DNA of 22,908 nucleotides, taken from the IMG/VR virus record IMGVR_UViG_2875703104_000003. One strand, written 5' to 3'. The number at the start of each line of letters is the position of its first letter. Within the stretch, counting starts at the first letter, position 1. Below the pieces are notes generated by a model. The model was given only the letters and a program-made list of their open reading frames with translations, was not told the origin of the DNA and made no database searches. Position numbers and translations under genes: made by a program. The DNA comes from a virus (lineage: Duplodnaviria; Heunggongvirae; Uroviricota; Caudoviricetes). Shown here one piece after another: positions 1-21,456 of the stretch.

Positions 1-1143
1 CTATGCTGTTTTGATATCTACGATAATCCAGTCTTTACCACGATCATCATTGTATCGGTCGGTCATTTTTCTGGATTTATGACCTAACAACTTTTGCGTA
101 TCCAGACCCTGTTCCCGATATAACCGTTCTGACAGAGATCGCTGCTCATGAAATGTGGGCGCAGTTCCTGGCTCCCATTTTATGCCACATTTTTCCCTGG
201 CCTTTTTAAAAGCCGTTGTAAGAGTATTTGCAGACACCTGGTCTCCTCTGTTTGCTTGAGAGGTAGTGTGACGGTAATGGACCAGATATTTACTAACAAC
301 AGCATCCCTGCACTGAGATATAACTTCACGAAGGGTAATATTCAGAGCATCGCATTTCAGGTTAAGCGGAATAGCAAGTTTTGAACCGGTTTTTTCCTGA
401 GTAATGTGCAACATGTCGTCCCAGATATCAGAGAATTTCAAATTGCAGATATCGCCTAAACGTTGTCCAGTGACAAGAGCAAGTAGCATCCCGCATTTTA
501 AATAGGGCTGCCGTCTGCTTACGCTGTCAAATATTGCCTGCCATTCGGGCAGTGATAATCTTTGGCGGTTTACTCGATTTCGCGGTTGTTTTGTTGCCTG
601 CGCTGGGTTAAATCCTGGCGGAACATGTCCTGCGTGTTGTGCTTCTTTGAAGACGTCGATCAACACCATTCTCACGACTTGCGCCATCCTGTTATGACCT
701 TCAGCCTTTACAGCATCAATTATTTCGGCAATATCAAGTGCGGTAATATCCTTGAGGTGTTGCATTCCACAATGCTCACGGAAAAGACGAATGGGTTTGC
801 CTTTTTGCCGATAGGAGTTGGGTCTTAGTTCATTATGTTGCAGCCTGTCCTCCTGGATAGAAATATATTTATCAAGCCATTCTGTCACCGTAATGTCTGA
901 GCGCCTGCCTTTCATTCTTTCTAGACGCTCATTGACGCTTAATATTTGTCGGGTACGTTGTTCAGCAATAATGGTATTTGCTTCAGTAGCAACTTGTTTT
1001 GCTTCATTCTCATCAGTTCCTAAGCTATGAAAACGACCGGATAGTGGATGTTTGTATTGCCAATATACCTTTCCGGTTCGCTTATCTAATTTGCAATATA
1101 AATTGGGTATAGAGATTTTGTGAGATCGGGGTCTAGCAGCCAT
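1..1143 (-). CDS. int: Phage integrase, lambda-family tyrosine recombinase
   Basis: 380 aa ORF with ATG at 1141-1143. C-terminus 'FHEQRSLSERLYREQ...LLGHKSRKMTDRYNDDRGKDW' closely parallels lambda Int 'FHELRSLSARLYEKQ...LLGHKSDTMASQYRDDRGREW' including the catalytic Tyr. N-terminus 'RPRSHKISIPNLY' resembles the lambda Int arm-binding region. Confidence 0.9.
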   Translation of the reverse strand: MAARPRSHKISIPNLYCKLDKRTGKVYWQYKHPLSGRFHSLGTDENEAKQVATEANTIIAEQRTRQILSVNERLERMKGRRSDITVTEWLDKYISIQEDRLQHNELRPNSYRQKGKPIRLFREHCGMQHLKDITALDIAEIIDAVKAEGHNRMAQVVRMVLIDVFKEAQHAGHVPPGFNPAQATKQPRNRVNRQRLSLPEWQAIFDSVSRRQPYLKCGMLLALVTGQRLGDICNLKFSDIWDDMLHITQEKTGSKLAIPLNLKCDALNITLREVISQCRDAVVSKYLVHYRHTTSQANRGDQVSANTLTTAFKKAREKCGIKWEPGTAPTFHEQRSLSERLYREQGLDTQKLLGHKSRKMTDRYNDDRGKDWIIVDIKTA

Positions 1144-1369
1144 CAGCGATTATCCGTTGGAGTTTTGGGTTTGCGTTTATTGGGAGTTGCGGTTCTGCAA
1201 GCGTTCCTACAAAACGGGAATTTCGGTCAATCATCCAGTAGCGACCAACTTTTATAGCGGGTGGGGCCATCATTTTCCCTTGCGCGTATTTTTTCAGAAC
1301 TCGCTCACTTGGTGCTAAGTCCCCAAATTCTTCTTTAGCCCAGTCCTGTAAAGTGATTAGTCGAGACAT
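1133..1369 (-). CDS. xis: Excisionase (Xis-like)
   Basis: 78 aa ORF immediately upstream of int, overlapping its start by 11 nt. Strong RBS (AGGAGG) before ATG at 1367-1369. 'ITLQDW' and 'PPAIKVGRYW' parallel lambda Xis 'LTLQEW' and 'PPPVKDGREY'. Confidence 0.7.
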   Translation of the reverse strand: MSRLITLQDWAKEEFGDLAPSERVLKKYAQGKMMAPPAIKVGRYWMIDRNSRFVGTLAEPQLPINANPKLQRIIADGC

Positions 1370-1508
1370 TTGTCCTCCTCTTAGCTGCTGAGGGAGTTTG
1401 TGACCGATATATCTGACATGATATTAAGCTCATGGCAGGTACATCTCTTGACTGGTCATAGAGATAAATTTAATGCTGAGAAATGCAGTATTGAATTTAT
1501 CAATTTTT

Positions 1509-1748
1509 CTATTTCCTGCGTATGGCACGTAACTTCTTAATGTGTTCTGCTGTTTCGATCTCTTCAGCTATCCGATCTGCGTCAGCTTTATTCACAGGTT
1601 CAAAGTCATGATTAAAGCGGAACATGCTGGCGATACATGTTCTGCCTTTTCGGATGTAGTGAACTTTGTTGTGAGTGGAACGCAGGATTTTGCAGGGAGT
1701 GCCGTGGTGGTCGACGTACCAGGTGTTAGGGTAAATCACTCTGAACAT
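1509..1748 (-). CDS. Hypothetical phage protein (Ea-region accessory)
   Basis: 79 aa ORF with ATG start, co-oriented with the left operon. No recognisable motif. Confidence 0.5.
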   Translation of the reverse strand: MFRVIYPNTWYVDHHGTPCKILRSTHNKVHYIRKGRTCIASMFRFNHDFEPVNKADADRIAEEIETAEHIKKLRAIRRK

Positions 1749-1773
1749 TCTTGACCTTGTGTTGTGCGGATTG

Positions 1774-2058
1774 TTATTCAGTGCCGATATTTACCTTTAT
1801 CGCGTATACCTTTACCGGTTTATCACCGAAGTGCGGATGTGTGATTGTCTTCACTTCATATCCGTCATACGGAACATCAACTCTGCGGCTGGAATCGTCG
1901 CGCTTCGGATATCCCTTTGTGATAATCAGGCGGTCATGCTTACGGTTAACGAGGCGCTTTTTCCAGTAGTCATTACACAGGCGATACTCTTCCGTTTTCT
2001 CTCCGCGAATCATGGCATCGAAGTATTCACCTTTAACGGCAAGTTGCAGGTTAGCCAC
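1774..2058 (-). CDS. Hypothetical phage protein
   Basis: ORF track gives 1774..2142; the preferred start is GTG at 2056-2058, preceded by AAGGAG with 6 nt spacing, giving 'MANLQLAVKGEYFDAMIRGEK...' (94 aa). Overlaps the upstream gene stop by 8 nt. Confidence 0.45.
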   Translation of the reverse strand: MANLQLAVKGEYFDAMIRGEKTEEYRLCNDYWKKRLVNRKHDRLIITKGYPKRDDSSRRVDVPYDGYEVKTITHPHFGDKPVKVYAIKVNIGTE

Positions 2059-2791
2059 GGTTAACTCCTTGCTGTGTGGCGTCGAGTAATAAATCCCACA
2101 ACCGCTGAGAGCAATTTCCGCATGTACAGCGTTGACCCACAACGTTTATCGCGTTGCTGATTTCCGGCGTTACCTGTTTAGGAACCATAACCCAACCATC
2201 CGGAGTTACCGGAAGCGAGAACGGCAGCACATCTCTGTGAACAAGTTTTTGCTGTGACAGGTTATCCAGAACTTTCTGTACTGCTGCATCACCGAATACA
2301 CCAAGCGCATCTGCCATAACTCCTACAACCTGATAAGCCTCAGCGCATACCGTGGATAAACCATCCGGAATTACCGGAGAGTTGCCGGGTTCTTTAATGT
2401 GCAAGCGAGGCTCACCATCTTTTGGCTCAGGCCACTGGCGCTCCATGTTGATCTTCAATTTATCTTCCATAGCAACGGTAATTTCAGCATCGCTGATGCC
2501 AGCACGGCGCTGTGCATCCCACAACAGAAACTGCATATCAGCCCACTCGCTAAGATCGTCTGGTTCGGCTGCGGCTTCCAGTGCCTCTTTTGAGAGGTGT
2601 TTCAGTGGACCAATGGGGCCAACGCAGCCAAATGTGGAGTCAGACCATTTGGCATGCTCGTGGCGAATCTGTTCGCGTTCCAGTGATGCCAGTGCAATTC
2701 GTGCTAGTTCCATTTGTTCGCCACGAGTAAGCCCGTTTTCAAGCGGATTTTTAATGAACAATTCAATACGTTCTTTGGTAATAGTGGTCAT
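2051..2791 (-). CDS. DUF550-type / MazG-like nucleotide pyrophosphohydrolase domain protein (from memory of family)
   Basis: 246 aa ORF, ATG at 2789-2791 with GAGGA RBS. The N-terminal region resembles the dATP/dGTP pyrophosphohydrolase-like (DUF550) proteins common in lambdoid Ea regions. C-terminal part carries 'NSPVIPDG' and 'LPVTPDGW' linker-like motifs. Confidence 0.55.
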   Translation of the reverse strand: MTTITKERIELFIKNPLENGLTRGEQMELARIALASLEREQIRHEHAKWSDSTFGCVGPIGPLKHLSKEALEAAAEPDDLSEWADMQFLLWDAQRRAGISDAEITVAMEDKLKINMERQWPEPKDGEPRLHIKEPGNSPVIPDGLSTVCAEAYQVVGVMADALGVFGDAAVQKVLDNLSQQKLVHRDVLPFSLPVTPDGWVMVPKQVTPEISNAINVVGQRCTCGNCSQRLWDLLLDATQQGVNRG

Positions 2792-2997
2792 GTGTTAATC
2801 CTCAAAACTTTATGCCCGGGCGCAAAAGTACGTGTTTTGTCTTTGCTTATTCGCCACCCGTCTTTACGGGCCTCTTTTGCACAACCAGACCATGACGTAC
2901 CGATATACTCACCGAAGTCTGGCACTGGATATACACCTTCCGTACACTGGCGACAATCACAATAGAGATGCATGGTGTAACTTGCGGCAATAGCCAT
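2788..2997 (-). CDS. Hypothetical small Cys-rich protein
   Basis: ORF 2788..3039 in the track; likely start at internal ATG (2995-2997), which overlaps the stop of the upstream gene (2999). Product 'MAIAASYTMHLYCDCRQCTEG...' has 4 Cys near the N-terminus. Confidence 0.4.
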   Translation of the reverse strand: MAIAASYTMHLYCDCRQCTEGVYPVPDFGEYIGTSWSGCAKEARKDGWRISKDKTRTFAPGHKVLRINT

Positions 2998-2998
2998 A

Positions 2999-3532
2999 TC
3001 ACTCTCTTTTTCCCTGAAGCATGGCAGCGTGGCAGGCATCCTCTACGCCCTTAACTGCATCTGCGCAGTAGTTATAGCGATTGCATTCCACTAACTTCTG
3101 CCTGAGATTTTCAATTGCTTGCGCGACATCAGCCTGTATTACAGGAACTGGCGGAACGGCTGTCTGCTGCTCTCGAACGTCATTAGTCGCTATCGGTTCT
3201 GCTGCCAACTGACTGGCATATTTGTTAATGGTAACGATAAGCTCTTGCTCAGCCTCATCCAGACAATCACCGATACCTCGCCTGTCGCCGTCAAAATCAT
3301 CGAAATCAGCACGAACTCTGGCAAATTTCAGGATTGCGGACAACACCTCACCAGGAATTACCGGAGAGTTGGTTGACGTTTCCGAAATTTCCCGAAAATT
3401 ATTGGTTGACGAATTCGCGTTTTCCCGAAAGTTTCCGGCATGAAGCATAGCCGCGCGGCAGGCGTTCCAGCCTCTCACCTCTGCAATAGCGGCAACAGCA
3501 TCGACCGCGTACATGCTAAGAGGGTTAGGCAT
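2999..3532 (-). CDS. Hypothetical phage protein (Ea-region)
   Basis: ORF track 2999..3607 begins at a TTG; preferred ATG at 3530-3532 (MPNPLSMYAV...), 17 nt after the upstream gene stop. Contains 'NSPVIPGEV', encoded by an 18-bp DNA string shared with the gene at 2051..2791. Confidence 0.45.
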   Translation of the reverse strand: MPNPLSMYAVDAVAAIAEVRGWNACRAAMLHAGNFRENANSSTNNFREISETSTNSPVIPGEVLSAILKFARVRADFDDFDGDRRGIGDCLDEAEQELIVTINKYASQLAAEPIATNDVREQQTAVPPVPVIQADVAQAIENLRQKLVECNRYNYCADAVKGVEDACHAAMLQGKRE

Positions 3533-3549
3533 TGGTTTTTCTTCAGGTA

Positions 3550-3804
3550 CTACTGGCACTGGCTTGGCATATATAGCGGCTGAACATACCAACCCTTTGA
3601 TAACCAACTGTCAGCAATGTTTTTACTCCTCGTTATTGCCGGAATACCTAAGCCATTGTCTGAATGCAGCCATGCCACCGGATTCTCTTCCAGCGATGCC
3701 AGAGCAATTTCATAAGCCCGGCGCTCAACATTGTCTCGCACATCCAAACTGCTGATACGCTCTTTGATTTCTTTAATCAGTTCTTTGTCGGTAAAAGTGC
3801 TCAT
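3550..3804 (-). CDS. Hypothetical phage protein
   Basis: Preferred start ATG 3802-3804 (MSTFTDKELIKEIKERISSLD...) with GGAG RBS, 1 nt after the stop of the Ea22-like gene. The ORF track extends to 3825. Confidence 0.5.
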   Translation of the reverse strand: MSTFTDKELIKEIKERISSLDVRDNVERRAYEIALASLEENPVAWLHSDNGLGIPAITRSKNIADSWLSKGWYVQPLYMPSQCQ

Positions 3805-3805
3805 A

Positions 3806-4570
3806 TCAATCTCCATTGGTATCAATGTTTACAGCCTGACAAGACTCTTTGAGCACCCAGTCAATAGCGTCTTTCCATGCCTCTGTTTCGACTGGTGGAT
3901 TTTCACGCTTAACCTGTTCATAGAAGCGCACTGCTTTAACCAGTCCTTCCGGTACTACTGGTGATGGCTGTTTAGCTTCTAAATCAGCAATTCTGTCAAC
4001 CACGGCATCGACAGCATCTGAAAAGCCGAACCAGTTGCTCCACTCCGGCTCATCCCCGGTTGCTGCAAAGTACATATCTGCTAAAGCAGATTCAGCATGG
4101 TCACGCTCGTTAATGAGTTGCTCTTCGCTTTTCTCCAGTTCAGCAATACGCTTACCCCCATCCGAGATAACACCTTCGTAATACTCACGCTGCTCGTTGA
4201 GTTTTGATTTTGTCTCCTCAAGCTCAACTCTCAGCTTCCCAACAGTAAGAGCAATATCCTCGTTCTCCTGGTCGCGGCGTTTTATGTATTGCTGGTTTCT
4301 TTCCCGTTCATCCAGCAGTGCCAGCACAGTAGCCGGATTGGCTGCGGCGATGAATTCAGCATTGGCCTGCTGTTCCATTTGGAAATCTTCATCGAAACCG
4401 CTTTCTGGATGCGCTCCTTCAATTCTGCAAATGGGAATATATCCAGCAACTTCACGATGAATTAGCGCATAATCACCATCAAATCGGCTCTCTCCATATT
4501 CGAGCGACCACTCACCACACGTTGCTTTTTCTGCCGCTTCACGCAGTGCCTGATAGTTAATTTCGCTCAC
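3806..4570 (-). CDS. ea22: Ead/Ea22-like protein
   Basis: 254 aa. N-terminus 'MSEINYQALREAAE' and the coiled-coil-like central block 'LLDERERNQQYIKRRDQENEDIALTVGKLRVELE' match lambda Ea22 from memory. GTG start overlaps the stop of the upstream gene (GTGA). Confidence 0.75.
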   Translation of the reverse strand: MSEINYQALREAAEKATCGEWSLEYGESRFDGDYALIHREVAGYIPICRIEGAHPESGFDEDFQMEQQANAEFIAAANPATVLALLDERERNQQYIKRRDQENEDIALTVGKLRVELEETKSKLNEQREYYEGVISDGGKRIAELEKSEEQLINERDHAESALADMYFAATGDEPEWSNWFGFSDAVDAVVDRIADLEAKQPSPVVPEGLVKAVRFYEQVKRENPPVETEAWKDAIDWVLKESCQAVNIDTNGD

Positions 4571-4788
4571 TTCGAACCTCTCTGTTTACTGATAAGCTCC
4601 AGATCCTCCTGGCAACTTGCACAAGTCCGACAACCCTGAACGACCAGGCGTCTTCGTTCATCTATGGGATCGCCACACTCACAACAATGAGTGGCGGATA
4701 TAGTCTGGTAGTTCAGACGACGCATTTTTATTGCTGTATTGCGCTGTAATTCTTCAATTTCTGATGCTGAATCAATGATGTCCGCCAT
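4567..4788 (-). CDS. TraR/DksA-family C4 zinc-finger protein
   Basis: 73 aa with CxxC...(17)...CxxC ('CCECGDPIDERRRLVVQGCRTCASC'), typical of phage TraR-like proteins. Confidence 0.7.
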   Translation of the reverse strand: MADIIDSASEIEELQRNTAIKMRRLNYQTISATHCCECGDPIDERRRLVVQGCRTCASCQEDLELISKQRGSK

Positions 4789-4886
4789 CTTTCATTAATC
4801 CCTGAATTGTTGGTTAATACGCTTGAGGGTGAATGCGAATAATAAAAAAGGAGCCTGTAGCTCCCTGATGATTTTGCTTTTCATGT

Positions 4887-5168
4887 TCACCGTTCCTTAA
4901 AGACGCCGTTTAACATGCCGATCGCCAGGCTTAAATGAGTCGGTGTGAATCCCATCAGCGTTACCGTTTCGCGGTGCTTCTTTAGTACGCTACGGCAAAT
5001 GTCATCGACGTTTTTATCCGGAAACTGCTGTCTGGCTTTTTTGATTTCAGAATTAGCCTGACGGGCAATGCTGCGAAGGGCGTTTTCTTGCTGAGGTGTC
5101 ACTGAACAAGCCCCATGTCGGCAAGCATAAGCACACAGAATATGAAGCCCGCTGCCAGAAAAATGCAT
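4887..5168 (-). CDS. Hypothetical protein in the lambda orf60a position; start uncertain
   Basis: ORF track 93 aa from ATG 5168. Alternative: GTG start at 5100-5102 (71 aa, 'MTPQQENALRSIARQ...') translationally coupled to an upstream 27-aa ORF. Position corresponds to lambda orf60a. Confidence 0.45.
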   Translation of the reverse strand: MHFSGSGLHILCAYACRHGACSVTPQQENALRSIARQANSEIKKARQQFPDKNVDDICRSVLKKHRETVTLMGFTPTHLSLAIGMLNGVFKER

Positions 5169-5178
5169 TCAGTGGTTG

Positions 5179-5370
5179 TCATACCTGGTCTCTCTCATCT
5201 GCTTCTGCTTTCGCCACCATCATTTCCAGCTTTTGTGAAAGGGATGTGGCTAACGTATGAAATTCTTCGTCTGTTTCTACTGGTATTGGCACAAACCTGA
5301 CTCCAATTTGAGCAAGGCTATGTGCCATCTCAATACTCGTTCTTAACTCAACAGGAGATGCTTTGTGCAT
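5179..5370 (-). CDS. Hypothetical protein in the lambda orf63 position
   Basis: 63 aa ORF with ATG start, between the TraR-like gene and exo as in lambda. Confidence 0.5.
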   Translation of the reverse strand: MHKASPVELRTSIEMAHSLAQIGVRFVPIPVETDEEFHTLATSLSQKLEMMVAKAEADERDQV

Positions 5371-5531
5371 ACCGCCTCCCGTTTATTATTTATCTTCTCA
5401 GCCAGCCGCTGTGCTTTCAGTGGATTTCTGATAACAGAAAGGCCGGGAAATACCCAGCCTCGCTTTGTAACGGAGTAGACGAAAGTGATCGCGCCTACCC
5501 GGATATTATCGTGAGGATGCGTCATCGCCAT
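5343..5531 (-). CDS. Hypothetical protein in the lambda orf61 position
   Basis: 62 aa ORF overlapping the exo 3' end and the orf63-like start, which is the arrangement seen in lambda. Confidence 0.4.
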
Positions 5532-6202
5532 TGCTCCCCAAATACAAAACTAATTTCAGCCAGTGCCTCGTCCATTTTTTCGATGAACTCCGGCACCATC
5601 TCGTCAAAACTCGCCATGTACTTTTCATCCCGCTCAACCACGACATAATGCAGTCCTTCACGCTTCATACGCGGGTCATAGTTGGCAAAGTACCAGGCAT
5701 CTTTTCGCGTCACCCACATGCTGTACTGCACCTGGGCCATGTAAGCCGATTTTATGGCCTCGAAACCACCGAGCCGGAACTTCATGAAATCCCGGGAGGT
5801 AAACGGGCATTTCAGCTCAAGGCCGTTGCCGTCACTGCATAAACCATCGGGAGAGCAGGCGGTGCGCATACTTTCGTCGCGATAGATGATCGGGGATTCA
5901 GTAACATTCACGCCGGAAGTAAACTCAAACAGGGCTCTGGCGTCGTTCTCGTACTGTTTTCCCCAAGCCAGCGCCTTAGCGTTAACTTCCGGAGCCACAC
6001 CGGTGCAAACCTCAGCAAGCAGGGTGTGGAAGTAGGACATTTTCATGTCAGGCCATTTCTTTCCGGAGCGGGGTTTTGCTATCACGTTGTGAACTTCTGA
6101 AGCGGTGATGACGCCGAGCCGTAATTTGTGCCATGCATCATCCCCCTGTTCGACAGCTCTCACGTCGATCCCGGTACGCTGCAGGATAATGTCCGGTGTC
6201 AT
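5522..6202 (-). CDS. exo: Lambda exonuclease (Red alpha)
   Basis: 226 aa, '[50 protein letters not shown]...', essentially colinear with lambda Exo from memory. Confidence 0.95.
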
Positions 6203-6984
6203 GCTGCCACCTTCTGCTCAGTGGCTTTCTGTTTCAGGAATCCAAGAGCTTTCACTGCTTCGGCCTGTGTCAGTTCTGACGATGCGCGAATGTCGCGGCG
6301 AAATATCTGGGAACAGAGCGGCAATAAGTCGTCATCCCATGTTTTATCCAGGGCGATCAGCAGAGTGTTAATCTCCTGCATGGTTTCATCGTTAACCGGA
6401 GTGATGTCGCGTTCCGGCTGACGTTCTGCAGTGTATGCGGTATTTTCGACAATGCGCTCGGCTTCATCCTTGTCATAGATACCAGCAAATCCGAAGGCGA
6501 GACGGGCACACTGAATCATGGCTTTATGCCGTAACATCCGTTTGGGATGCGACTGCCACGGCCCCGTGATTTCTCTGCCTTCGCGGGTTTTGAATGGTTC
6601 GCGGCGGCATTCATCCATCCACTCGGTAACGCAGATCGGATGATTGCGGTCTTTGCGGTAAATCCGGCATGTACATGATTCATTGTCCTGCTCAAAGTCC
6701 ATACCATCAAACTGCTGGTTTTCATTGATGATGCGGGACCAGCCATCAACGCCCACCACCGGAACAATGCCGTTCTGCTTATCAGGGAAGGCGTAAATTT
6801 CTTTCGTCCACGGATTAAGGCCGTACTGGTTGGCGACGATCAACAATGCGATGAACTGCGCATCGCTGGCATCACCTTTAAATGCCGTCTGGCGAAGAGT
6901 GGTGATCAGTTCCTGTGGGTCGACAGAATCCATGCCGACACGTTCAGCCAGCTTCCCTGCCAGCGTTGCGAGTGCTGTACTCAT
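6199..6984 (-). CDS. bet: Bet single-strand annealing protein (Red beta)
   Basis: 261 aa, '[66 protein letters not shown]...' matches lambda Bet. Overlaps the exo start by 4 nt. Confidence 0.95.
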
Positions 6985-6989
6985 CCGTT

Positions 6990-7286
6990 TTATACCTCTG
7001 AATCAATATCAGCCTGATGGTGAGCAATGGTTTCAACTATGTACCGGATGTGTTCTGCCATGCGCTCCTGAAACTCAACATCGTCATCAAACGCACGGGT
7101 AATGGCTTTTTTGCTGGCCCCGTGGCGTTGTAAATGATCGATGCATAGCGATTCAAACAGGTGCTGGGGCAGGCCTTTTTCCATGTCGTCTGCCAGTTCT
7201 GCCTCTTTCTCTTCACGGGCGATCTGCTGGTAGTGACGCGCCCAGCTCTGAGCCTCAAGACGATCCTGAATGTAATAAGCGTTCAT
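6990..7286 (-). CDS. gam: Gam, RecBCD inhibitor (short GamS form only)
   Basis: 98 aa, '[60 protein letters not shown]...' matches lambda GamS. The in-frame upstream region hits a TAA after 18 codons with no start codon, so there is no GamL extension. Confidence 0.9.
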
Positions 7287-7361
7287 GGCTGAACTCCTGA
7301 AAATGGCTGTGAAAATATCGCCCGCGAAATGCCAGGCTGATTAGGAAAACAGGAAAGGGGG

Positions 7362-7505
7362 TTAGTGAATGCTTTTGCTTGATCTCAGTTTCAGTATTAA
7401 TATCCATTTTTTATAAGCGTCGACGGCCTCACGAAACATCTTTTCATCGCCAATAAAAGTGGCGATAGTGAATTTAGTCTGGATAGCCATAATTGTTTGA
7501 TCCAT
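7362..7505 (-). CDS. kil: Kil host-killing protein (FtsZ inhibitor)
   Basis: Internal ATG of the 89-aa track ORF gives 47 aa '[47 protein letters not shown]', matching lambda Kil. Overlaps the cIII 3' end as in lambda. Confidence 0.8.
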
Positions 7506-7638
7506 TTTTTGGGACTCCTGGCTGATTAAGTATGTCGATAAGGCGTTTCCATCCGTCACGTAATTTACGGGTGATTCGTTCAAGTAAAGATTCGGAAGGG
7601 CAGCCAGCAACAGGCCACCCTGCAATGGCATATTGCAT
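7474..7638 (-). CDS. cIII: cIII (FtsH inhibitor, stabilises cII)
   Basis: Hand translation of the minus strand gives 54 aa '[54 protein letters not shown]', matching lambda cIII. Below the 60-aa cutoff of the ORF track. Confidence 0.8.
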   Translation of the reverse strand: MQYAIAGWPVAGCPSESLLERITRKLRDGWKRLIDILNQPGVPKNGSNNYGYPD

Positions 7639-7710
7639 GGTGTGCTCCTTATTTATACATAACGAAAAACGCCTCGAGTGAAGCGTAATTGGTATGCGGT
7701 AACGCCGCGC

Positions 7711-8079
7711 TCAGGCGGCCTTGATAGTCATATCATCTGAATCAAATATTCCTGATGTATCGATATCGGTAATTCTTATTCCTTCACTACCATCCATTGG
7801 AGGCCATCCTTCCTGACCATTTCCATCATTCCAGTCGAACTCACACACAACACCATATGCATTTAAGTCGCTTGAAATTGCTATAAGCAGAGCATGTTGC
7901 GCCAGCATGATTAATACAGCATTTAATACAGAGCCGTGTTTATTGAGTCGGTATTCAGAGTCTGACCAGAAATTATTAATCTGGTGAAGTTTTTCCTCTG
8001 TCATTACGTCATGGTCAATTTCAATTTCTATTGATGCTTTCCAGTCGTAATCAATGATGTATTTTTTGATGTTTGACAT
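7711..8079 (-). CDS. ea10: Ea10-like protein
   Basis: 122 aa, 'MSNIKKYIIDYDWKASIEIEIDHDVMTEEKLHQINNFWSDSEYRL...'; same position and size as lambda ea10 (from memory). Confidence 0.75.
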   Translation of the reverse strand: MSNIKKYIIDYDWKASIEIEIDHDVMTEEKLHQINNFWSDSEYRLNKHGSVLNAVLIMLAQHALLIAISSDLNAYGVVCEFDWNDGNGQEGWPPMDGSEGIRITDIDTSGIFDSDDMTIKAA

Positions 8080-9982: not shown

Positions 9983-10735
9983 TTATGCTGCAAGTCTCTT
10001 AACCCAAGTCTCTCTTTTGGAGAATGGTAGAACTTGGCTTGATTCATGGAAGAGTAAGGAGAGTTGTTGCATTTGATCACCAATTGCTTCGCTGTCTATA
10101 ACAACAAATCTGTTGTTATACTCCTCACTTGAAGCTTTAAGATCAATTAGTTTCCCAAGCAATGAGTAAGCACTATTCCAGCTTCCTCCGTGTTTCACGC
10201 TTGATGTAAAAACGTATTTAGGTATGTCGGTTTTTATTGTTACAGGGACGGTAATTTGATGTCCACTCAAGCCATATACGTTTTCACGAAGAGAAAGTGC
10301 GTCTCTAAGCTCTGTGTGATATAGATAATCAATAACCATACTTTCAAACTTTTCAGCTTGAACTGGCTGATACCAGTCTAACGACAAAGTTGATGCGAGT
10401 ATACCAGCTCTAATTATGTTCGATGTAATCGCACCGACATCCTTTTCTGTTGCCCAAGCAATGATTTCTCCTCGAGCATTGAGTTCTGCGCCTTCTTTAA
10501 GCAGTAATTGTCGTATCTCATCAAGTCGTTTTTTGGTAAGCGAGATCCCTCTTGCCTCCATATTCATTAAGGCATCGCATCTGTCACTAACTAAATACCT
10601 ACCATTGACTTCACGGATAAAGGCACCGACATGCTCTCCATCATCACAGTAAGTGAATGGACTGATAATTCTCAAGGTCTTGCCTATTGGATGGCATTCG
10701 AAACCTAGTTGTGAGATCACTGTTGAGCACATCAT
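9983..10735 (-). CDS. Uncharacterized protein B of the rex-slot cassette (250 aa)
   Basis: ATG at 10733-10735 overlaps the stop of the upstream 185-aa gene (ATGA), so translation is probably coupled. No motif I recognise (no P-loop, no clear TM helices). Visibly AT-rich. Confidence 0.7.
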   Translation of the reverse strand: MMCSTVISQLGFECHPIGKTLRIISPFTYCDDGEHVGAFIREVNGRYLVSDRCDALMNMEARGISLTKKRLDEIRQLLLKEGAELNARGEIIAWATEKDVGAITSNIIRAGILASTLSLDWYQPVQAEKFESMVIDYLYHTELRDALSLRENVYGLSGHQITVPVTIKTDIPKYVFTSSVKHGGSWNSAYSLLGKLIDLKASSEEYNNRFVVIDSEAIGDQMQQLSLLFHESSQVLPFSKRETWVKRLAA

Positions 10736-11289
10736 ATTCCAAACCCCATTTGCCCCGACTCATCTTCAAGCGGTAAAGGTATTCTCCCAGAGTAAGTTAT
10801 GTTCAGATGTTTACAGAAGTAATTCCAATACCCTACCAGGTCATCTGGGTTTATGTCATCTTCGATTGGAAACGCTATTCTATCACTATAGTATCCAGCT
10901 TCTTCATAGTATACATGGTAGTGAGCACCGTAAATGATATCTTGGTACTTCGGATGATCGACCTTGTAACTATTCGTGTGTTTGTCAAAGTGATAGGTAT
11001 CTACCGCGAAAACCCTCTTGTTATGATAGAAAGCAATAATATTTATTTTAGGGTAAGAAATCGGGTCATCAGGTTCTGAATCCTGATCTGGTTTCCATTT
11101 CAGTTCAAACTTTAGCCCTTGTATAGGTATACAATCCTCATCCAAGGGGATGATATGGGCTTGTAGCCACATATCAGAGCGACTTGGTTTCTGTTTCCAT
11201 TTAACGCCAGAAAAGTTAACTATTTTTTTACAATAAAGTACTTTATCAACTTCTACTTGGCTTGGCTGATAATCATCTATTTTTGCCAA
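10732..11289 (-). CDS. Uncharacterized protein A of the rex-slot cassette (185 aa, start uncertain)
   Basis: Long ORF directly downstream of cI on the same strand. The ORF opens with TTG at 11287-11289, two codons after an in-frame TAA; the first in-frame ATG is at codon 40. Tyr/Asp-rich, no recognisable motif. AT-rich. Confidence 0.65.
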   Translation of the reverse strand: MAKIDDYQPSQVEVDKVLYCKKIVNFSGVKWKQKPSRSDMWLQAHIIPLDEDCIPIQGLKFELKWKPDQDSEPDDPISYPKINIIAFYHNKRVFAVDTYHFDKHTNSYKVDHPKYQDIIYGAHYHVYYEEAGYYSDRIAFPIEDDINPDDLVGYWNYFCKHLNITYSGRIPLPLEDESGQMGFGI

Positions 11290-21031: not shown

Positions 21032-21456
21032 GAGATTTCACGTTGCGTTTCAGTGATAAAGCAGATTTCAGGGCATTTCTCAGGAAACTTAACTGGGAAG
21101 AGGACGAAGAGCTGCAGAATGCCGTTCTGGTTGATGAGATTGGTTTTACGTTCAGGGAGACAGATGTTTCTGATGACGGAGAACCAGAATACACGCGAAA
21201 CGAAGGGTACTTTGTTAATATCCGTCTTCTTGACGNNNNNNNNNNNNNNNNNNNNNAAGAGCTGCAGAATGCCGTTCTGGTTGATGAGATTGGTTTTACG
21301 TTCAGGGAGACAGATGTTTCTGATGACGGAGAACCAGAATACACGCGAAACGAAGGGTACTTTGTTAATATCCGTCTTCTTGACGATGGATTTGAGGATT
21401 CCGTGTTCCGTGAGTGGGTGGTTACACCAGAGCGCCCGCTCAGGGAGTGGTTTTAA
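21028..21456 (+). CDS. Hypothetical small protein immediately downstream of stf (tfa position but not Tfa-like); inflated by an assembly duplication
   Basis: GTG start overlaps the stf stop (GTGA). De-duplicated product is about 92 aa: 'MRDFTLRFSDKADFRAFLRKLNWEEDEELQNAVLVDEIGFTFRETDVSDDGEPEYTRNEGYFVNIRLLDDGFEDSVFREWVVTPERPLREWF'. Acidic. Confidence 0.45.
   Translation: MRDFTLRFSDKADFRAFLRKLNWEEDEELQNAVLVDEIGFTFRETDVSDDGEPEYTRNEGYFVNIRLLDXXXXXXXXELQNAVLVDEIGFTFRETDVSDDGEPEYTRNEGYFVNIRLLDDGFEDSVFREWVVTPERPLREWF
21236..21256. other. Assembly spacer (21 N) flanked by a duplicated block
   Basis: About 21109..21235 is repeated exactly after the N run. Confidence 0.9.

Follow-up and report, generated by a model that had tools for sequence, protein, structure and literature searches.

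The exo–xis segment of an Escherichia phage: lambda-conserved early genes beside a variable mosaic with a predicted DUF550 pyrophosphohydrolase

Introduction

Which functions are carried by the genes placed between xis and exo in a temperate phage, and whether they serve against host defence, are questions raised by the viral sequence IMGVR_UViG_2875703104_000003 (Caudoviricetes), whose whole analysed stretch of 22,908 nucleotides (nt) is referred to below as the window. Positions 1509–5531, between xis and exo, form an unbroken series of minus-strand open reading frames (ORFs). A first-pass annotation had regarded this block as a slot for anti-defence and host-takeover genes, with an Ea22-like protein, a TraR/DksA-like zinc finger and a MazG-like protein of 246 amino acids (aa) as its recognisable members. 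The results presented here indicate, with a probability of about 85%, that the block is the exo–xis segment of the early leftward operon (pL) in a temperate phage of the lambda type, which is the same as ev017 and PhiR57_1 and lies by icd, and that it joins a lambda-conserved block to a variable mosaic with one recognisable enzyme, a predicted DUF550 pyrophosphohydrolase. All of its parts belong to described families, to a described genome region and to deposited phages; the element is already known and is not of a new kind.

Results

Identity of the segment

The assignment to a known phage is based on DNA identity. Window positions 1370–5531 are 100% identical over the full length to Escherichia phage ev017 (NC_049948, genus Jouyvirus) and to PhiR57_1 (PV340572), and in PhiR57_1 the block is found at coordinates identical to those in the window. 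Of 5426 complete E. coli genomes, 86, with CFT073 and ATCC 25922 among them, carry the same 4.2 kb at a coverage of at least 80%. Partial copies occur in 4835 genomes, and parts of the block are found at a median of 2 places in each genome. The prophages of CFT073 and ATCC 25922 are identical to the window block and adjoin icd. A short fragment of icd (isocitrate dehydrogenase) is also borne by ev017 beside int (1366–1518 of the ev017 stretch examined), and both observations are consistent with integration at the 3' end of icd. The int/xis pair of the window is of the icd-integrating type and differs from that of lambda, its Int being 35% identical to lambda Int. Insertion sequence (IS) elements (ISEc10, IS100, IS3 family, ISEc52) break the otherwise identical block in CFT073, ATCC 25922 and other strains; in ATCC 25922 one insertion lies within orf63 (5402–6571 of the ATCC 25922 stretch examined).

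The likeness to lambda concerns both the place between exo and xis and the gene order. In local blastn comparisons, window 4522–6274 shows 96.9% DNA identity to lambda and 4123–4328 shows 90%, and left of 4123 no match to lambda was found. The right part of the block (4123–5531) thus contains orf60a, orf63, orf61, a 31-codon ORF, orf73 and the start of ea22, which agrees with the published description of the exo–xis region as conserved orf60a, orf63, orf61, orf73 and ea22 followed by variable genes (PMC8614690). The left part (1509–4122) comprises the Ea22 C-terminus, a split gene and the genes of a 69-aa protein, the DUF550/EaA protein, an ASCH-type protein and a DUF4222 protein; lambda ea8.5 and orf55 are absent, and this 2.6-kb mosaic stands in their stead. 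To the right of the block the annotation gives exo, bet, gam, kil, cIII, ea10, ral, N and cI, and the cIII thermoregulator at 7593–7651, outside the block, was the sole Rfam match (E ≤1, scan of 1–8000). All block genes lie on the minus strand and their junctions are short or overlapping. Because of the flanking genes from exo to cI and of the cIII thermoregulator, and by analogy with lambda biology, the block is placed as the presumed distal part of the pL operon. The segment would be transcribed after N antitermination, together with the upstream genes cIII, kil, gam, bet and exo and the downstream genes xis and int.

The DUF550/EaA protein

The first-pass annotation had ascribed a MazG-like N-terminus to the 246-aa protein. 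The domain itself is real (PF04447, E 8e-42), although it is preceded by a leader of 35–40 residues and does not begin the protein. PF04447, the former DUF550 family, is named dATP/dGTP pyrophosphohydrolase, and the match reaches 141.8 bits against a cut-off of 23 and covers profile positions 1–96 of 97. The protein is composed of the leader (1–40), the MazG-like domain (42–137), an NSPVIPDG linker, a conserved middle module (145–193), a PVTPDGW joint and a rare 46-aa Cys-containing tail.

No relative, S-2L MazZ included, was found when the single DUF550 sequence was searched against the PDB. An exhaustive search of representatives gave close cores alone, which clustering left as 2 groups at 72% identity, and a large-database profile search was swamped by E. 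coli copies. Because the broader searches gave close E. coli cores, the link to MazG was examined with a small profile (A3) of four sequences, namely the window domain and those of Klebsiella phage Skenny, Mycobacterium phage Toto and Pseudomonas phage H66, which are 58, 32 and 30% identical to it, respectively. The sole PDB match of this profile was 7ODY_A, the MazZ of cyanophage S-2L (E 1.9e-5). After the MazZ residue numbers had been corrected for an offset of 6 residues between the PDB chain and the paper, window E69, E72, E82 and D85 coincided with the MazZ metal ligands E35, E38, E50 and D53 (ExxE...ExxD), R118 with the transition-state residue R83, and K111, N115, W120 and D92 with the pocket residues K76, N80, W85 and D60. 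All nine residues are invariant in the alignment of the four phages, which infect Escherichia, Klebsiella, Mycobacterium and Pseudomonas. The homology to S-2L MazZ is thus visible at the profile level, with identical residues at all conserved metal- and phosphate-binding positions. The AlphaFold2 (AF2) model of the 246-aa protein, built on a 22-sequence alignment, has a predicted local distance difference test score of 40.5; it shows helices over 23–119, but its quality does not allow a fold search.

The DUF550 protein of Acinetobacter phage SH-Ab 15497 belongs to the same Pfam family as the window protein and hydrolyses dATP and dGTP to monophosphates (as cited in PMC12884076, PMC8342488). 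Judged by its residues, the window protein is very probably an active metal-dependent pyrophosphohydrolase of the MazG type acting on (deoxy)nucleoside triphosphates. It would turn dGTP or dATP, the most likely substrates, into the deoxynucleoside monophosphate and pyrophosphate and, if active, would serve at an early stage of infection to adjust or clean the pool of nucleotides. In contrast to the phages with a Z-genome, the window has neither the purZ/datZ partners nor the DUF5664 fusion, and its DNA is ordinary as far as can be read. The domain setting is also different from that of the SH-Ab 15497 and S-2L enzymes, as the MazG-like domain of the window has an Ea22-type leader before it and two additional modules on its C-terminal side.

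The family consists of 3847 clusters at 50% identity, reaches distant phages and includes P22 EaA; the domain occurs in 365 Klebsiella phage records. The products of eaA in the P22 group have a DUF550 core 78–86% identical to that of the window, and the common DUF550–DUF551 proteins of E. coli prophages are 98–99% identical to it over residues 1–200. Their usual C-terminal DUF551 cassette (ISCSERMP...HWMPLPEPP) is replaced in the window by the 46 residues VMVPKQVTPE...CTCGNC, a tail shared by 7 of 105 representatives. In these 105 proteins the core (42–200) is nearly invariant and is followed by 19 unrelated tails, all beginning directly after TPDGW; 16 of the 19 are of the DUF551 type. In Pseudomonas phage H66 the DUF550 gene is directly followed by an N-(deoxy)ribosyltransferase-like gene (421–1403 of the H66 stretch examined), a nucleotide-metabolism neighbourhood that fits an enzymatic role for DUF550 outside the Z-genome phages.

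Orf73, the TraR-like zinc finger

The 73-aa zinc-finger protein agrees with lambda Orf73 at 71 of 73 residues, the substitutions being H27Y and A29T. It matches PF01258 above the cut-off (E 8.4e-9) and aligns with TraR of the F plasmid (PDB 5W1S, E 4.5e-5), so the TraR/DksA-like assignment made earlier was right. Its D3, D6 and A8 (DxxDxA) align with D3, D6 and A8 of TraR, its C35, C38, C56 and C59 with C37, C40, C58 and C61, and R46/R47 stand at the positions of R48/R49; the DxxDxA motif, the C4 zinc finger and the pair of arginines seen in TraR (PDB 5W1S, 6N57) are therefore all kept. In TraR, DxxDxA reaches the active site of RNA polymerase, and R48/R49 contact the rim helices and beta' Si3 (PMC9239242). 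The score of Orf73 for the TraR subfamily in NCBIfam (TIGR02419), 54.2 bits, is below the cut-off of 59.7. As lambda Orf73 differs at just 2 residues, this shortfall is read as the effect of a strict cut-off and not as exclusion from the family, and the validated lambda protein presumably scores alike.

Binding to the secondary channel of RNA polymerase, put forward as a possibility in the first-pass annotation, is already established for the near-identical lambda protein. Gopalkrishnan et al. showed that lambda Orf73, which binds RNA polymerase and can complement a strain null for dksA, inhibits ribosomal RNA (rRNA) and ribosomal-protein promoters without guanosine tetraphosphate (ppGpp), slows host growth and raises the burst size, and that substitutions in its DxxDxA, zinc-finger and Arg motifs lower its activity (PMC9239242). 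From this 97%-identical protein we infer the same function in the phage studied here. Orf73 would act as TraR does, with the N-terminal DxxDxA helix passing through the secondary channel to the active site, and would shut rRNA and ribosomal-protein promoters without ppGpp, diverting resources to phage production.

Gene content and junctions

The deposited annotation of PhiR57_1 gives 11 genes in the block, to which an unannotated 31-codon ORF has to be added, in good agreement with the earlier count of about ten. The starts were taken from PHROG alignments and the deposited annotation, as the mechanical ORF starts are too long in several cases; the real ones are 2058, 2997, 3532 or 3514, 3804 and 5525. 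The genes and flanks are as follows.

1133–1369: xis, left flank of the block
1509–1748, minus: DUF4222 protein, 79 aa (PF13973 E 6.4e-19; phrog_285 E 3e-36)
1774–2058, minus: ASCH-fold (PUA-like) protein, 94 aa, GTG start, 8-nt overlap with the DUF550 stop
2051–2791, minus: DUF550/EaA protein, 246 aa (PF04447 E 8.2e-42)
2788–2997, minus: Cys-containing protein, 69 aa (phrog_926 E 6.7e-36, match starting at residue 15 in the long ORF)
2999–3532, minus: 177-aa protein, apparent downstream half of a split Ea22-like gene (phrog_14306 E 4.6e-110)
3550–3804, minus: 84-aa ORF, apparent upstream half of the split Ea22-like gene (phrog_5117 positions 1–83)
3806–4570, minus: Ea22 homologue, 254 aa (PF13935 E 4e-40)
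4567–4788, minus: Orf73, C4 zinc finger of the TraR family, 73 aa (PF01258 E 8.4e-9; phrog_54 E 1.5e-24)
4795–4890, minus: 31-codon ORF, same peptide in lambda, 4-nt overlap with the orf61 stop
4887–5168, minus: Orf61, full-length 93-aa form (phrog_303 E 1.8e-42)
5179–5370, minus: Orf63, DUF1382 (PF07131 E 7.7e-31; PDB 8DSB E 7.4e-33)
5343–5525, minus: Orf60a, DUF1317 (PF07026 E 2.2e-38), start overlapping the exo stop by 4 nt
5522–6202: exo, right flank of the block

The family matches in the block are far beyond chance, and the profile searches, which had been proposed as a check, detected family membership for all three of the members named at the outset. The statement that most genes are chained by overlapping start and stop codons holds in part and is somewhat overstated. 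From exo to xis there are 13 junctions, 6 of which overlap (by 4, 28, 4, 4, 4 and 8 nt) and 2 of which abut with a 1-nt gap; the others are four gaps of 6–25 nt and one of 139 nt. This last gap, between the DUF4222 gene and xis (1370–1508), is more stable than shuffled sequence (−32 kcal/mol, z −2.65) and contains a 16-pair AT-rich hairpin (1463–1501) without an Rfam match. No tandem repeats were found in the block.

The lambda-conserved genes

Orf60a, Orf63 and Orf73 are 96.7, 93.7 and 97.3% identical to the lambda proteins, respectively, and Orf63 matches the nuclear magnetic resonance (NMR) structure of lambda Orf63 (8DSB). The lambda Orf61 is a truncated form (PMC8614690) of 61 aa, whereas the window encodes the full-length protein of 93 aa, which is 91–100% identical across the two out-of-frame pieces found in lambda (orf61 and its continuation). 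The 31-codon ORF agrees with lambda in 30 of 31 codons, and the sole difference is the start codon, GTG in place of ATG; a 31-aa peptide from the exo–xis region was reported by ribosome profiling of lambda (PMC8614690). This ORF fills an apparent gap of 98 nt between orf61 and orf73, where a strong terminator-like hairpin (4866–4848) followed by a T-run is also seen. The published phenotypes of the lambda-conserved exo–xis genes concern the lysis–lysogeny decision and its timing (PMC8614690). The products of this part would tune the lysis–lysogeny decision and host physiology.

The Ea22 homologue crosses the border between both parts. The match to PF13935 (138.1 bits against a cut-off of 27, residues 2–146) leaves no difficulty with its earlier description as Ea22-like. 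The identity to lambda Ea22, 55% against its residues 1–104, is confined to residues 1–149 of the homologue, where the blastp alignment ends, and the protein is built of a lambda-like N-terminus and coiled coil, an SPVVPEG linker and a C-terminal domain not found in lambda. The dimeric C-terminal domain of the lambda type was not recovered, as the PDB sequence search (E ≤1) gave noise alone. This agrees with the report that lambda Ea22 is set apart from its homologues by the C-terminal domain, for whose dimeric lambda form an NMR structure is available (PMC10834534). Residues 139–193 weakly match a PHROG labelled 'RecBCD inhibitor' (E 7e-7), and the matched segment is the coiled coil.

The split gene and the proline-rich joints

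Short proline-rich linkers recur in the variable part. The DUF550 protein contains NSPVIPDG and PVTPDGW, the Ea22 homologue contains SPVVPEG, and NSPVIPGE and PVPVVPEE are encoded within the 177-aa ORF or immediately ahead of it. The DNA coding for them recurs at 2197, 2362 and 3349 and at 3541 and 3946; the copies at 2362 and 3349 agree at 21 of 23 nt, and by our own estimate about 3e-4 such pairs are expected by chance in 4 kb. Within the NSPVIPDG-coding DNA a terminator scan found a palindrome, TCCGG TAATT CCGGA (2364–2378). Paralogy among the block proteins was also considered and rejected, there being no statistical support past the short linkers and leaders (best E 0.15–0.6).

A trace of module exchange is the pair of the 84-aa and 177-aa ORFs. 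The former encodes a leader of the Ea22/EaA type and a middle cassette, and the latter a GWNACRAAML module, the NSPVIPGE linker and a C-terminal module; a single-sequence search gave no PDB match for the 177-aa protein. One family, phrog_5117, spans both, with positions 1–83 on the 84-aa ORF and 84–122 on an upstream in-frame extension of the 177-aa ORF (to 3607) that encodes the PVPVVPEE linker, which follows the leader without a break both in HK022 and in the database protein P0006. The ea22 region of HK022 (an Ea22-like protein of 235 aa, a 121-aa leader protein, DUF551 and ASCH) has the same order of module types, a closely similar ASCH-type protein, and the same leader and PVPVVPEE...GWNACRAAML module, between which its middle cassette lies. 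Its leader protein is one intact ORF of 121 aa, in contrast to the window, and its DUF551 is carried on a different N-terminus with no DUF550. At the DNA level the flanks are near-identical in both phages and the middle cassette is replaced and out of frame (3353–3825); the point at which the sequence becomes similar to HK022 again coincides exactly with the start of the DNA coding for PVPVVPEE. Because the cassette is different and out of frame, the 84-aa ORF stops within the linker-coding DNA. In view of the replaced cassette and its out-of-frame junction, the pair is treated as a split gene. By this reading of the DNA, the two ORFs are the halves of a single modular gene of the Ea22-like kind, which HK022 has in intact form. 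The NCBI Prokaryotic Genome Annotation Pipeline (PGAP) flags the gene as 'frameshifted' in ATCC 25922. A programmed −1 frameshift joining both ORFs was rejected in view of the replaced cassette; no obvious slippery heptamer was seen, though no dedicated scan for one was made.

Fusion and loss of modules are seen as well. P0006 (348 aa) fuses the leader of the 84-aa ORF, the N-terminal module of the 177-aa protein and the DUF550 protein, and in ev207 and phage 21 orf73 leads directly to the ASCH gene, with about 2.5 kb from DUF550 to ea22 missing. From the linkers, the P0006 fusion, the HK022 comparison and these deletions it follows that the variable block is a recombination mosaic which is at least partly dispensable. 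The view of the slot as non-essential and variable is therefore well founded, as ev207 and phage 21 do without these 2.5 kb and IS elements interrupt the block in other strains. Such a mosaic would arise by recombination at the joints coding for NSPVIPDG, PVTPDGW and PVPVVPEE, which would swap leaders, cores and tails between phages and would here have left one gene split.

The small proteins of the variable part

The 94-aa protein carries the NCBI label ASCH, and an ASCH/PUA-like beta-barrel fold was found for it, although its Pfam score (PF04266, 15.5 bits, E 0.029, profile positions 1–39) is below the cut-off of 21.2. A single-sequence search against the PDB gave noise alone, and the identity to YqfB, the N4-acetylcytidine (ac4C) amidohydrolase of E. 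coli, to ZmASCH of Zymomonas and to 3IUW of E. faecalis is 12–19%. It is predicted to be, probably, a binder of nucleic acids or modified nucleosides. For the DUF4222 protein no PDB relative was found by sequence, and for the 69-aa protein there was no Pfam, NCBIfam or PADLOC match; NCBIfam gave almost no matches among the block genes.

Features outside the block

Between N and cI, in the slot of lambda rexAB, the minus strand of 9983–11289 encodes a 249-aa DUF1828 protein (E 5e-8) and a 185-aa protein with a weak DUF6978 match. The pair matches both components of PADLOC PDC-M24 (B with E 7e-10, A with E 5e-4) and is likely to be a defence candidate encoded by the prophage. A perfect 129-nt direct repeat (21107–21235 and 21257–21385, spacing 150 nt) lies close to the Bor gene and to partial tonB-like genes; it is absent from the output of Tandem Repeats Finder.

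Discussion

Several points have to be set against the description given above. The MazG fold of the 246-aa protein is read from sequence and profile comparison, the AF2 model being unusable, and the activities of the proteins in this phage are, likewise, deduced from their sequences. The DUF550 enzyme with a measured activity belongs to a phage with a Z-genome and forms a fusion with DUF5664; the phage studied here has no purZ context, hence both substrate and purpose of its enzyme may be different. Transcription from pL in this phage is derived from gene order. Finally, the split pair of ORFs, together with the frequent IS insertions elsewhere, allows partial decay of the variable block.

The idea of an anti-defence island is reasonable for an exo–xis slot. 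According to it, the variable block, and chiefly the DUF550 protein with its exchangeable tail, would neutralise host immunity, either by hydrolysing alarm signals or their precursors or by tails that bind defence proteins. The high variability and dispensability of the slot speak for it, and the 19 unrelated tails on a near-invariant core resemble the result of diversifying selection on a binding surface. Moreover, Oad2 (HK446 gp27), a protein of modular build whose gene occupies the same slot near xis in HK446, directly inhibits the OLD defence nuclease (bioRxiv 10.64898/2026.07.10.737580), and its leader is common to the Ea22-like protein of HK022. Homology to Oad2 or to an OLD inhibitor of the P22 EaE type was, however, rejected for the block, as the best blastp match of Oad2 to the block proteins has an E of 5.2 and tblastn gave no match in the block. 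PADLOC yielded no match (E ≤0.01) for the ten block proteins other than Orf63 and the product of the 31-codon ORF. The active site of DUF550 agrees residue for residue with an enzyme specific for deoxynucleoside triphosphates (dNTPs), the only activity measured in the family is that on dATP and dGTP, and the phenotypes in print for the conserved genes concern lysogeny and timing. The anti-defence or signal-degrading role proposed in the first-pass annotation is not supported by these comparisons, and an island of this kind is considered unlikely.

A narrower version of the same idea would make DUF550/EaA an enzyme of the arms race and not of housekeeping. The invariant MazG core would be brought to its partners by the exchangeable tail and would blunt nucleotide-based immunity, by removing signal precursors or by countering defences that act on the dNTP pool. 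This is a speculative and rather improbable suggestion. If it were true that the tails target host defence proteins, anti-defence factors would be obtainable from a gene family that is very common among E. coli prophages.

Apart from defence, it may be asked whether the region 1509–4122 consists mostly of passive recombination products and fragments, with functions confined to the lambda-conserved genes. One gene is visibly split, PGAP sets pseudogene flags in the block, IS elements are inserted there in several strains, relatives without 2.5 kb of the block stay viable, and four ORFs have no family past PHROGs of unknown function. Debris would hardly be expected, however, to show a DUF550 core that is near-invariant across hundreds of E. 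coli clusters and retains all catalytic residues, nor a family of such size and reach into distant phages. The ASCH-fold protein is 70–99% conserved across many Enterobacteriaceae genera, and the ORFs are still open, tightly packed and coupled by their start and stop codons. A left part made up mostly of evolutionary debris is thus quite improbable. Exclusion of superinfecting phages by a prophage-borne DUF550 that would deplete dGTP or dATP, proposed by analogy with the dNTP-depleting defence enzymes of hosts, agrees with the predicted chemistry and with the great frequency of the gene in E. coli prophages but is hardly credible, as the pL operon is repressed in the lysogen, no promoter-like site stands out upstream (4 found in the region, 5.8 expected), PADLOC gave no match, and the same domain occurs in virulent Klebsiella phages that have no lysogen to protect.

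The reading of the block as a lambda-like exo–xis segment with a variable, enzyme-bearing mosaic is therefore retained. It assigns the window to a known phage, ties its zinc-finger gene to a characterised regulator of RNA polymerase, and documents the modular build of Ea22 and EaA proteins, whose parts meet at short proline-rich joints. The DUF550 protein of a temperate phage with ordinary DNA keeps every catalytic residue of MazZ, which raises the question of what purpose a conserved dGTP/dATP pyrophosphohydrolase core with exchangeable tails may serve in ordinary temperate phages without Z-DNA.

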